Shown here one piece after another: positions 20,117 through 41,758 of a DNA stretch of 64,000 nucleotides (positions are counted from its first letter, which is position 1; the number at the start of each line of letters is the position of its first letter). The translations under genes and the position numbers were made by a program. The notes below the pieces were generated by a model that had not been told where the DNA came from, did no database searches, and worked only from the letters and a program-made list of their open reading frames with translations. This DNA is from Eledone cirrhosa (Eukaryota), in assembly GCA_964016885.1 (NCBI GenBank), contig OZ024742.1, positions 142,352,001-142,416,000 of the forward strand, written 5' to 3'.

Positions 20117-20548
20117 GAATAATAATAAACATTCGATATTAATAAATTTCGATATTAATAATAACGTTCGATTCGTTAGCAATTTTGCAAACAAGCCTCA
20201 ATTTTATAGCCATGTTCGCATGCCAACACAAGAGGAAGAATGAAGTGTTCATTCTACTGACATGGCTATAATATTGAGGTTTGTTTGCAAAAGTGCAAAC
20301 GAATCGAATGTTATTATTAATATTCGAAAAAGGGTGGTGGACTGGCAGTATCGGTAGAGGGTCGGACGCCATGCTTTCCAGCATAGTTACGTCCCTTTAC
20401 GATCTGAGTTCAAATCCCGCCGAGGTTAACTTTGCCTTTCATCCTTACGGGGTCGATAAAATAAAGTACCAGTAATGAACTGGGTATTTGCTGGCCTTGT
20501 GCCTAAAGTAGAAACAATTATTAATATTCGAAAAACTCAGATTACATT
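20117..20548. mobile_element. Hairpin MITE truncated at its left end, containing a tRNA-SINE (20331-20516, +) with ~18-bp TSD
   Basis: Internal inverted repeat gcaaacaagcctcaattttatagccatgt / acatggctataatattgaggtttgtttgc; TSD attattaatattcgaaaa. Confidence 0.75.
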
Positions 20549-20715
20549 AATTGTATTCACCCATGTAGAGCGAAATTTTCTTTTTTACACACACACACAC
20601 ACACACACACACACACACACACACACACACACACACACATATATATATATATATACATACATATATATATATATATATATATATATATATATATGTATAT
20701 ATATATATATATACA

Positions 20716-23700
20716 TAATTCCCTCGTTATTTAGCTCCTATCTCCGTAGTAGAGCACTTTCCAACCCTACCACGCCATATCCCGACTTTTCCACCCAGCT
20801 TAGTTTATTCACTCGCACCATGCGAAAACACAACATCGACTTCTCCACCAAGAACATCGCAGTTCCACCGAGAAAACTTTACCTTCGGATGCTCACGCAA
20901 AAAATCAACCTTTTTGCGAAAAGACTAAGATGGAGAACTTTTTCTACGATAGATACCGCGACAATCAGGACTTTGACACCAAGGAGAGATTTGGATTCAA
21001 TACCTACAAATCTCCCCCTCCGAACCATATGCTCTCACCCTTCGAGAACGACCTTTTCCACCTGGTCAAGAGCATTATATTCAAACCCAGACACAACAGA
21101 TTCCTACAAAAACTCCGTAGCAAAATAACAGAGTATGAAAACACCAACGACATCATGGTGCACTCGGACAAAACTGGAAACCTCTATATCGTCAACCCTG
21201 ACAGATACCACACACTGATCAGGAGCAGCCTAAACTCCACCTATAAAAAGGCTAACCATTCAATTATCGAGGACATAAATCGAGATGGACAACAAATTAC
21301 CTCCAGTCTCGGTGTCGCCGACCGCACTGAACCCCTAGACCCACGGATTCCCTACTTCACACTGAAGGACAACAAATCCGACTTCGACCGCAAACCATCC
21401 ATCAGGCTTATAAACCCAACGAAGTCGGACATAGGGAGAATCAGTAAAAAAAATTCTAGATCGCGTTATACCAAAAGTTAAGCAAAACACGAGACTTAGC
21501 CTATGGGTCAACACCCAGGAAGTAATCTCATGGTTCAGGAATATGGAGGACAAACGAGACACAAAATTCATCCAGTTTGACATAGAGAGTTACTATGCAT
21601 CTATTACCTTACCGCTCCTTACGGCCGCCTTGGACTTTGGCGAAACACTCACGCCCATCACTGACCAGGAAAGAAATATCATTCTCCACGCCAGGAAGAC
21701 AGTCCTACTTTTCGACAACTCCAAGGGGATAAAGAGAACTCCCGACTCACCCTTCGACGTCAGTATGGGCGCGACGGATTCGGCCGAGGTCACAGATTTT
21801 ATAGGATTATTCCTATTATTTAAACTCACCGAAATGTTTCCTGCATTCGGCAGTGGATTGAACCGAGATGATGGGCTCCTCACCCCCAAAGGGTACAACC
21901 CCAGTAGTACAGACCGGGTCCGTAAACAACTAATCAGCTTCTTCCGGGACTGGGGATTTAAAATCACCCTACAAACGTCCCTAACCCGTGTAAATTTCCT
22001 GGACGTTACCCTTAACCTCGAAAATGATCTGTACTACCCATACAGGAAACCAAACGACAACCTGCACTACATCCACCGCCGCTCTAACCATCCTAGAAAC
22101 ATCACCAATAACCTGGTTAAAAACATCTCCCTCCGCATATCTCGTTTGTCCACTAATGAGTAGATATTCGACGAAAATGCGCCTCATTAAACCAGGCCCT
22201 CAAGCGGAGTGGCTTCCGGGAGGAAATATCCTTTTATCCAGCTTCCCTTAGCGGAACCAGCAGGCGCAATGTAACGTGATTCAATCCTCCCCACAATGCC
22301 GAGGTGGCAACACCTATCGGGAAAATCTTTAGGCTCCTCGAAAAACACTTCCCACCACAACATAATCAACAAAAACACCATCAAACTCTCCTACAGCACC
22401 ACACCTAACTTCACACAAAACATCGTCTCCCCAAACAACAAAAAACTCAACCCCTATGGAAGAAATAACTTAGACATCAGTGGAGAGCCGACCAGGAGGT
22501 ATAACTGTCCTGATAGATCCATGTGCCCACACAAGAACAGATGCCGAGAACGGAACGTGATCTACCAGTGCAACGTGAGGACGGACACCTCCAACAAAGC
22601 TTATATAGGATTAACCGCTTTAGACTTCAAGACCCGGCTCTACCAACACCGACATACTTTCCGAAACCCGGTCCGGCGACATGCCACTACACTTTTGGGC
22701 CACATCTGGGACCTCAAAGATAATAATATAACCTACAATCTCACTTGGAGCTTACTGTTCAGAGCTAACTCTTACACGGGAGGACGTCGTCCGTTTAACT
22801 TATACTCGGAGGAAACATTACAAATGTTGTTTTCGAAGGACCAACTCCTAAACAAGAAAGACGAACTGGTAACCGCATGCAAACACAGATTGCGTAGGAC
22901 CTACCTCGCCTTTAAACCCCATAACGACCCGGTGGGTAGACAACGGCTGATACCCCCCACTTGCCGAATAAGTTAGGGGAAACTCCTGATTACATAGGGA
23001 GAAGTACCTCTTTTTTTCTCCTCTACGTTTCCTTCTTCCCCCGATCTCCTTCCTCGTCTGTCTTTCCCCTTTCGCCTACCCCGATGCAGCCCATCATCCT
23101 CTGTAGTCTCAGTACCCCCACCCCAGTATTTTAAAGATATAATTGGCCGATTACGCTTTACTAACTATTTATAGCAGATGTGTTAGACCCCTGTAATTTC
23201 TTCTTTTTTTTTGTTACTACTCCATTTCTCAATTTCAATATTTCTCATTTAGTAGTTTCTTATCTCTACTTATTAACCTGTAATTGTATGATAGCATTGG
23301 CTGATTACGCTTTACTAACTATTTATAACAGCTGTGTTAGACCCCTTGAAAAGTTTGCATTATTTTTTCACGACCCACTCCAACATTCTCTTATTTAGTA
23401 TTTTACTCTCTACTTATTAAACTTTTCTATAGCTTTGCCGTACCAGCAACACCTATTAATTATAGCAGCTGTTTCTAGACTCCAATGTATTTGTTTTTTT
23501 CATTTCTCAATATATCATTTTTTATATTTATATATTTTTATTTTTATTTTCATTGTCTTCGTCTTACCTATTCTTTATACTCCCCTCCTCCTTTTCCCCA
23601 GAACATTCTTTCATACACTTTCCTTAGAATCTGTTGTATAGATTTCACTTTCAACGCCTAACTGGCTTTACTCATTCCTTCTTTGTTCTACCGGCAAGTT

Positions 23701-23911
23701 CAGCCACTCCTACCTCCCACTAAATGCCATGACAGATCTACTTGTCTTTACAACAAAATTTGACCAATCCTCTTGACAATTATAATCTTCCCATATAAGG
23801 AAGTTCCCCTTGATAAGTTCGGCTATTTATTTACCAGGTTAAAAATTCTAATTTAGTCCTGAAATAGCCGTCGAAACGGCTTGAGCTCTGCTGTCGGGGT
23901 CATACCTTTTA
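20716..23911 (+). mobile_element. Apparently full-length but disabled Penelope-like element (Naiad-like, family A): N-terminus, RT, GIY-YIG and long 3' UTR
   Basis: FSTKNI.VP..LRW, SDKTGNLY, RLINPTKSDIG, FDIESYYASI, FDVSMGATD, (N)RDDG, VNFLDVT, YRKPN..SNHP, VIYQC..YIGLT; several frameshifts and stops. Confidence 0.9.
23806..23900 (+). ncRNA. Degenerate hammerhead-like motif at the 3' end of PLE A
   Basis: cccc / gggg stem I, cggctattt..aaatagccg stem II, GAAA-cggcttgagctctgctg-TC; 5' core decayed to ttgataag. Confidence 0.45.
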
Positions 23912-40900: not shown

Positions 40901-41134
40901 TCGTAGAAAAAGTTCTCTATCTTAGTCTTTTCGCAAAAAGGTTGATTTTTTGCGTCAGCATCCGAAGGTAAAGTTTTCTCGGTGGAACTGCGATGTTCTT
41001 GGTGGAGAAGTCGATGTTGTGTTTTCGCATGGTGCGAGTGAATAAACTAAGCTGGGTGGAAAAGTCGGGATATGGCGTGGTAGGGTTGGAAAGTGCTCTA
41101 CTACGGAGATAGGAGCTAAATAACGAGGGAATTA
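37939..41134 (-). mobile_element. Mirror copy of PLE A
   Basis: ORFs 39687-40307 and 40369-40821 mirror 21543-22163 and 20930-21481; retains YRDDG. Confidence 0.9.
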
Positions 41135-41301
41135 TGTATATATATATATATATACATATATATATATATATATATATATATATATATATATATATATATA
41201 TATGTATGTATATATATATATGTGTGTGTGTGTGTGTGTGTGTGTGTGTGTGTGTGTGTGTGTAAAAAAGAAAATTTCGCTCTACATGGGTGAATACAAT
41301 T

Positions 41302-41758
41302 AATGTAATCTGAGTTTTTCGAATATTAATAATTATTTCTACTTTAGGCACAAGGCCAGCAATTACCCAGTTCATTACTGGTACTTTATTTTATCGACCC
41401 CGTAAGGATGAAAGGCAAAGTTAACCTCGGCGGGATTTGAACTCAAATCGTAAAGGGACGTAACTATGCTGGAAAGCATGGCGTCCGACCCTCTACCGAT
41501 ACTGCCAATCCACCACCCTTTTTCGAATATTAATAATAACATTCGATTCGTTTGCACTTTTGCAAACAAACCTCAATATTATAGCCATGTCAGTAGAATG
41601 AACACTTCATTCTTCCTCTTGTGTTGGCATGCGAACATGGCTATAAAATTGAGGCTTGTTTGCAAAATTGCTAACGAATCGAACGTTATTATTAATATCG
41701 AAATTTATTAATATCGAATGTTTATTATTATTCATATTCAATAAACTCAGATTACATT
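41302..41758. mobile_element. Complete hairpin MITE with a nested SINE (41334-41520, -)
   Basis: Perfect 16-bp outer TIR aatgtaatctgagttt / aaactcagattacatt. Confidence 0.75.

Follow-up and report, generated by a model that had tools for sequence, protein, structure and literature searches.

A 21.6-kb palindrome in the Eledone cirrhosa assembly with a head-to-head pair of Penelope-like elements at its centre and mirrored flanking DNA in its arms

We analysed a 64-kb stretch of the 3.0-Gb assembly of Eledone cirrhosa (GCA_964016885.1; contig OZ024742.1, here C3, positions 142352001-142416000), referred to as the window; positions without a contig or locus name are window positions. It holds a 21.6-kb palindrome whose centre is a pair of 5'-truncated copies of a Penelope-like element (PLE), family B, and whose arms carry the same flanking DNA (the cargo) beyond the ends of that element. 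The palindrome is a true feature of the assembly and, judged from the assembly's internal evidence, very probably exists in native DNA. We consider it reasonably probable that it arose as an inverted duplication of ~10.6 kb, in which a hairpin nucleated at the B junction was copied round by host DNA synthesis.

Extent and divergence of the arms

Alignment of positions 19500-31400 with the reverse complement of 30500-42400 gave a left arm of 10,740 bp and a right arm of 10,529 bp, as a first-pass annotation of this DNA had claimed (Table 1). Between them lie 348 unpaired bases (30857-31204), a short single-copy spacer of the kind that characterizes fold-back inverted duplications. Outside microsatellites the arms differ by substitution at 50 of 9,043 columns (0.55%). 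These differences are patchily distributed (heterogeneity P = 0.011), with 19 in 2,258 columns of a dead element termed PLE A, 11 in 1,002 of an older B-related fragment (B'), 2 in 498 of the B tail and none in 955 of the B frame; the innermost 1,027 bp of the two arms are identical.

Both arms share the disabling lesions VT*FNPP and LSTNE*, which bears out the earlier claim that dead flanking DNA had been duplicated. The private changes described there were likewise found: NRDD versus YRDD between the arms, a W-to-stop (20931) and an R-to-stop (22545) change on the right, and the absence from the right arm of a ~137-bp segment (26150-26286). Since relatives keep this segment, its absence is a right-arm deletion. 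Derived alleles, polarised with family copies, number 19 on the left and 14 on the right (P = 0.49), divided as 10 left and 12 right in PLE A and 9 left and 2 right in B', and both arms have aged. Together with flanks that have no mirror match within 100 kb, derived alleles on both sides contradict a fold-back within a single read, as first argued. No N gap occurs across 264 kb around the locus, and near-identical repeats nearby are resolved. Three cargo stretches and the miniature inverted-repeat transposable element (MITE) at the outer edge are each present in two near-identical copies, and the next-best genomic copies of the cargo reach 92-94% identity (among 40 candidates scored per search).

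Table 1. Features of the palindrome and its edges (window positions).
Feature	Position	Strand
Family D repeat, 3' fragment with PLE-like tail, 3' end on (TA)n; outside the palindrome	19620..20118	-
Left outer junction, D/MITE, 2-bp microhomology (GA)	20117..20118	.
Left arm, putative new copy	20117..30856	+
Hairpin MITE, left-truncated, carrying a short interspersed nuclear element (SINE)	20117..20586	.
Dead PLE A: reverse transcriptase (RT), GIY-YIG-type tail, pseudo-long terminal repeat (pLTR)	20718..23940	+
PLE-tail-like fragment between microsatellites; hammerhead-like motif by eye	24525..25214	+
Inverted A-related PLE tail, containing the 137-bp segment lost on the right	25311..26726	-
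Older B-related PLE fragment B', ~89% to B	26716..27728	+
PLE-tail-like fragment	28354..28786	+
SINE-like piece between (TA)n arrays	29027..29234	.
Left copy of PLE B, tailed, truncated at its 5' end and with its 3' end on (TA)n	29394..31189	-
18-nt templated insertion, direct copy of 31167-31184	31190..31207	+
Right arm, putative original position, mirror of left arm	31205..41733	-
Right copy of PLE B, tailed, truncated at its 5' end and with its 3' end on (TA)n	31208..32667	+
Rest of the MITE terminal inverted repeat, outside the palindrome, as in other MITE copies	41734..41761	.

Family B and the centre of the palindrome

The two B copies at the centre have open frames of 433 (left) and 324 (right) codons; both are 5'-truncated against family members with frames of ~1,230 codons (loci L091-L094). 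The head-to-head layout described in the first-pass annotation stands, with the exact join corrected: minus-strand B runs to 31189, an 18-nt insert fills 31190-31207, and plus-strand B starts at 31208. The 5'-most 333 bp of the left copy (30857-31189) form part of the single-copy spacer. The last three bases of the insert (cat) also pair with the left arm, giving a 3-bp overlap at its inner edge, and the allele that completes this overlap was found in 0 of 47 other B copies. Fold-back inverted duplications have a short inverted overlap, an inverted repeat or a locally copied insert at the centre, and here both an overlap and such an insert are present.

[quoted passage not shown] Pfam matched RVT_1 weakly (E 0.00085) and returned no GIY-YIG match. 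The B protein has 38 longer homologues, and its best named relative, at 64% identity, is from Octopus vulgaris. Read from the translation, B has C-X4-C-X2-C before the endonuclease core, two Cys within the core and His residues after it. A CCHH motif and a CX2-5CxxC linker are described as marks of Neptune/Nematis-type PLEs (PMC8557442); B has both, which suggests, as a clade assignment from motifs only, that it is of this type. The B tail translates as the N-terminal stretch of full-length family frames. A hammerhead core-like motif is visible by eye near 32405-32440; Rfam gave no B match.

Head-to-head pairs of family B elsewhere in the genome

Family B has many copies at 94-99% identity. 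We surveyed 53 B loci, 16 chosen for showing pairs and 37 chosen only for carrying the tail, and found 42 other head-to-head pairings in 37 of them; about half of the tail-bearing copies sampled (20/37 by eye) were already head-to-head. Copies end at B position 1751 or at 1806/7, two points 55 bp apart that delimit the PLE tail. The tail is present on one arm in 39 of the 42 pairings, on both in 2 and on neither in 1. At the palindrome both arms end at B position 1807 and both are tailed.

The flanks are equally distinctive. The palindrome shares 574 in-register flank 20-mers between its arms; the counts were 0 in 40 other pairings and 4 and 23 in the remaining two, so that in-register sharing there extends over at most ~42 bp, where three pairings (all at L168) have mostly microsatellite flank and give the test little power and L032 offers only 283 bases on one side. 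The earlier statement that PLE inversions are normally confined to the element thus holds for this family, with flank copying in 0 of the 42. Spacers of other B pairs measure 25-1,816 bp and come with short inserts or small overlaps (from 20 of 26 rows, six having been mis-paired with a 5' pLTR and left out), and the ~340-bp spacer and short insert of the palindrome fall within this range. The centre therefore looks ordinary for family B, and the arms do not. In an ordinary PLE head-to-head insertion the inverted match stops at the element 3' ends and one arm is tailed, and neither holds here. Because both arms are tailed and the flanks are shared in register, one arm, tail included, is a copy of the other arm plus ~9.3 kb of flank. 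Such copying of flanks appears to be a rare one-off in the sample, seen once among 43 pairings.

Outer junctions and the ancestral arm

The outer boundaries, D/MITE on the left and the MITE end on the right, each occur once in the assembly across all contigs. The natural end of the MITE is kept on the right only; on the left the MITE is cut, as is the family D repeat that it abuts, and 19 of 19 other D copies examined run past that point. Because the MITE end survives on the right and D is cut on the left, we infer that the right arm is ancestral and the left arm new. The longer B copy and the spacer lie on the left, in the orientation of the new arm. Neither poly(A) nor a target-site duplication was found at the left junction.

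D has seven strictly private substitutions in 499 bp, four of them clustered near the junction, against 1.6 expected from ~0.3% per arm (P = 0.001; P = 0.08 if the cluster is counted once, leaving four events). Because of this excess D likely pre-dated the duplication, and we regard co-insertion of D with the new arm as unlikely on the same two P values.

Timing and arm-to-arm conversion

Per-arm divergence of the cargo is 0.32%. Ten other B pairs show 55 changes over 2 x 11,136 sites, or ~0.25% per arm, and because the two values are similar, the duplication falls within the active period of B, a timing that fits the insertion itself or a later event alike. The two B copies of the palindrome share seven rare alleles and differ at two of 1,272 sites; in the ten other pairs shared rare alleles number 0-5 and differences 1-9. 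None of 74 other B copies has more than one of the seven. The dating overlaps B activity, but an older B would account for these shared alleles as well. After the duplication the arms seem to have exchanged sequence by patchy conversion near the centre.

Origin of the palindrome

The probabilities that our wording conveys for this and all other readings are judgements and were not computed. The sequence shows that B inserted at a (TA)n array and that its centre resembles the family's ordinary head-to-head junctions. In the duplication that we favour, a hairpin would then have formed at the B junction, either by annealing of the two B copies after a break to their left or by snap-back of cDNA when an integration failed, two possibilities that fit the data alike. 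Fill-in, replication or strand displacement would have copied the B tail and ~9.3 kb of flank out to the MITE hairpin, and synthesis round the tip would place the spacer in the new arm's orientation, as observed. The new end would have joined the broken D at the 2-bp microhomology now present there, with loss of the DNA that once lay between D and B. Finally, the divergence of ~0.3% per arm would reflect drift accompanied by patchy conversion near the centre. That a hairpin at B was the nucleus of the duplication, as first proposed, we judge likely, and the product is likely neutral repeat DNA. In a more specific version, an intermediate of the PLE's own integration would have capped a chromosome end with a hairpin, and copying of that end would have produced an inverted duplication of 10 kb that is inherited. 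This would be a germline PLE counterpart of L1 foldbacks; we put it forward tentatively and regard it as doubtful.

Several points weigh against a hairpin at B copied by host synthesis. With ~87% of the palindrome repeat-derived, chance would be expected to place its centre within one element or another. There is one locus only, with no second example in the survey. The B part of the arms differs at 2 of ~1,450 columns where the cargo rate predicts ~9 (P = 0.005), so that later conversion must be added to the account (or consensus collapse, were the palindrome a mis-join). The allele at the inner edge fits a prior mutation that served as microhomology about as well as right-to-left copying.

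The arms could instead be alleles, if a heterozygous inversion with a breakpoint in the MITE led the assembler to switch haplotypes inside a head-to-head B pair that was already there. The same layout would result, spacer orientation included; a divergence of 0.55-0.63% and derived changes on each arm are as expected of alleles, and consensus collapse could account for the identity of the inner 1,027 bp. We nevertheless find it unlikely, as it needs both such an inversion and a haplotype switch within a repeat pair of 3.3 kb whose anchors are distinct, in a region free of N gaps where near-identical local repeats were resolved and the flanks are unmirrored. Neither a second copy of either boundary in any contig nor a third near-identical cargo copy among the scored candidates was found, and purged haplotigs would escape both searches.

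Among contigs and reads from seven runs, none bridges a junction and none argues against one. For the centre (31189-31208), no bridging piece was among the contigs listed for runs X1-X3 (one sample) and X5; family B sequence continues past 31189 and 31208 as loose ends. The private alleles at 30950 and 31250 were not in X1-X3 contigs, which drop rare variants in a family of ~100,000-fold summed depth. At the left junction no bridging piece was listed either. Depth in X2 was 7.5 and 7.2 in two bins around 20118, near the bottom of the ~6-21 range of single loci in that run and not obviously double. A few X2 contigs have the alleles of the window at positions 19850 and 19998, which hints at the presence of the locus there; X1-X3 are possibly from the source sample. 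Restriction-site-associated DNA runs X6-X8, with cut sites that match SphI and EcoRI, had no junction-spanning reads; the 497-bp fragment there may fall outside size selection.

B might also have been a bystander: a break in an older single B would have folded back on the 3-bp microhomology with a slipped 18-nt insert, the hairpin would have been replicated, and the head-to-head look would be a by-product. The tail on both arms then follows without extra steps, as do the seven shared rare alleles, one of which is the microhomology-completing allele absent from 47 other copies, while no more than one of the seven occurs in any of 74. The junction also resembles those reported for human fold-backs, with 2-8 bp of microhomology and local inserts (PMC3907307). 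This we hold to be rather unlikely, since the break must land, rightly oriented, in a young element of which about half of the tail-bearing copies are head-to-head anyway (20/37), and later conversion is still needed for the mere two differences in B.

The first-pass annotation had offered two other routes, which fare worse. In one, B cDNA folded back, synthesis continued directly through the element and on into the chromosome attached to it, and the new strand was then joined to the left fragment. Self-priming has been proposed for PLE inversions (PMC3846280), the slipped insert is compatible with template jumping by a polymerase, the timing overlaps B activity and both arms would be tailed. 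As written, however, it predicts the longer B on the ancestral right arm, and the longer copy lies on the left, with the old flank on the right. Only a later flip of the spacer by arm crossover would rescue it, and in a human palindrome inversions are reported as rare relative to conversions (3 versus 56; PMC3723533), which makes this route improbable. The other, a >10-kb read-through transcript from B that was reverse-transcribed from the broken D end and joined into B, has a fitting strand polarity (the left arm plus strand is the complement of a B-sense transcript) and a precedent in PLEs that can mobilise unspliced host DNA (PMC3846280), but is very improbable: it would start inside the MITE, whereas PLE reverse transcription is described as starting at two tail-bounding sites (PMC11167929), the ends that the tallied B pairs use; the left junction has no poly(A) or target-site duplication; and the new arm shows no overall excess of derived changes (19 versus 14, P = 0.49), the sole large loss being on the right arm.

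Comparison with known systems

Two reverse-transcription start sites tied to the tail have been described for PLEs (Frangieh et al., PMC11167929), as have inverted units and self-priming (PMC3846280, PMC8557442). The PLE head-to-head insertions in these three sources resemble the palindrome's centre in having two 5'-truncated copies, (TA)n, a short spacer and a family-like junction. The palindrome differs in that both arms are tailed and the match runs ~9.3 kb past the element, whereas the 42 other pairings stop at its end.

Fold-back routes are documented elsewhere. In yeast, fold-back at inverted repeats is accompanied by correction of mismatches to the template repeat (PMC10622511), and it also occurs with widely spaced repeats in single-stranded DNA (PMC10164571). 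Fold-back has also been proposed for human inverted duplications, in which spacers and templated inserts occur and 3 of 21 lie at Alu or long interspersed nuclear element (LINE) pairs (PMC3907307). These cases share with ours the single-copy spacer, microhomology, templated insert, an apparent loss of adjacent sequence and near-identical inner arms; here no telomere healing or translocation is evident, and a microhomology of 2 bp joins the outer end back to the scaffold from which it came. Hairpins made by L1 are reported to be replicated into foldbacks in human cell lines (PMC11702581, which cites cases from the Pan-Cancer Analysis of Whole Genomes, PCAWG). Reverse-transcribed sequence at the centre and a proposed replicated hairpin are common to both; ours involves a PLE, has the element on both arms, spans 10.6 kb, is interstitial, and has arms old enough to have diverged, apparently inherited and not somatic.

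In the human Y palindrome P6 (PMC3723533) patchy arm identity is likewise compatible with multi-kilobase conversion tracts. P6 arms are reported at above 99.9% identity, against 99.45% here, where no genes were found in the arms and conversion is only deduced. Capture by a PLE in Adineta vaga (PMC3846280) also duplicated non-element DNA in association with the element, there with pLTRs on either side of the cargo, a new location and a target-site duplication; in E. cirrhosa the cargo is outside the element, in place, inverted and without one. In the Drosophila virilis group Penelope has been tied to inversions only indirectly, as described in PMC6278893. The fold-back duplication route is thus established for other retroelements, and a PLE-centred case that copies flanks is new to the literature searched: we found no PLE-centred duplication of flanking DNA there, and subscription papers and supplements, which lay outside the search, may hold cases.

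Contents of the arms and surroundings

From the outside inwards each arm holds the hairpin MITE with its SINE, dead PLE A, a PLE-like tail, the inverted A-related tail, B', a tail with a weak hammerhead match, the SINE-like piece and the young PLE B, with (TA)n/(TG)n arrays between them; ~87% of the palindrome matches repeats in loci fetched from elsewhere in the genome. Because PLE A carries 2.2% private changes common to both arms, the cargo is old repeat DNA. The right-arm MITE copy folds at z = -16. Of the earlier inventory, the microsatellites, MITE, PLE A and SINEs were recovered, and target-site duplications for one SINE: that at 20332-20516, inside the MITE, has a 19-bp duplication on its flanks, and none was evident around the SINE-like piece at 29027-29234. 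In several hairpin-MITE copies (L103-L120) this SINE family occupies the end that it occupies here, a possible target preference. The type I hammerhead match at 28698-28742 scores 31.7 bits, below the Rfam cut-off of 34. A small fold-back (26634-26717; 29-bp stem, 27-nt loop) lies exactly at the join of the A-related tail and the B-related PLE, a head-to-head junction of two different PLE families. Two B' head-to-head insertions of identical layout lie 493 kb apart (C2:130350855-130352136 and C2:130843537-130844818), which suggests a segmental duplication.

No host gene was found within the palindrome among the 118 of 406 candidate frames scanned. Signs of its transcription were not found either, and none of the 8 read runs listed is on record as RNA; the dsRNA, small-RNA and ADAR roles suggested in the first-pass annotation are thus hypothetical. 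Exons for the membrane part of a ligand-gated (Cys-loop-type) ion channel, on the plus strand, end ~50 kb to its left (L067:6877-9552), and muniscin-domain exons, on the minus strand, end ~29 kb to its right (L071:6986-8338). These are the closest host exons detected, and as the two genes converge, an intergenic position is probable for the palindrome, long untranslated regions or missed exons aside.

Other repeats in the area were recorded. A separate, ordinary PLE unit at 16574-19082 has a 500-bp inverted pLTR at 93.6%. A local direct duplication (12250-13450 and 15190-16570; 445 bp at 99.3% plus adjoining microsatellite) flanks a 1-kb element (14161-15125) with inverted 34-bp subterminal repeats. 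Several near-perfect palindromes of 280-390 bp (arms 97-99%) at 43814-44199 and ~2.3-3.9 kb left of the window start likely belong to a MITE or fold-back family, and a GC-rich 27-bp tandem repeat occupies 45125-45463 (12.6 copies). Further left, C3:142258995-142267369 (L061-L062) holds a tandem array of three 2.8-kb units (~100% identity), all of which contain a 311-bp palindrome, and C3:142270719-142283916 (L062-L064) a very young PLE C nest of one inverted and two direct units (99.9-100% identity). The nest is bracketed by identical 795-bp inverted ends from a young repeat family, with 98-99% copies elsewhere, some paired 7-9 kb apart. Located 68-81 kb to the left of the window, the nest had been a second candidate for flank copying on account of the mirrored ends enclosing its PLE C pair; we rejected it as the ends are a young multi-copy family, and the microsatellites between them are not mirrored. 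Inverted repeats of 2.4-3.3 kb on contigs C5 and C1417 stop at element boundaries.

Implications

As far as tested, the locus holds only repeats, without evidence of function, and stands alone among the 43 pairings. As a gene-free palindrome of 10 kb, it offers a system for measuring arm-to-arm conversion in an invertebrate. If its proposed origin is real, the very common head-to-head PLE insertions can give rise to inverted duplications of host DNA that are inherited and long enough to contain a gene, and a tail on both arms together with mirrored flanks provides a signature by which they could be counted genome-wide. Should a PLE integration intermediate prove to have been the source, such events would be recognisable genome-wide by the same combination of two tails and shared flanks, and would be a source of gene-sized palindromes in PLE-rich genomes.

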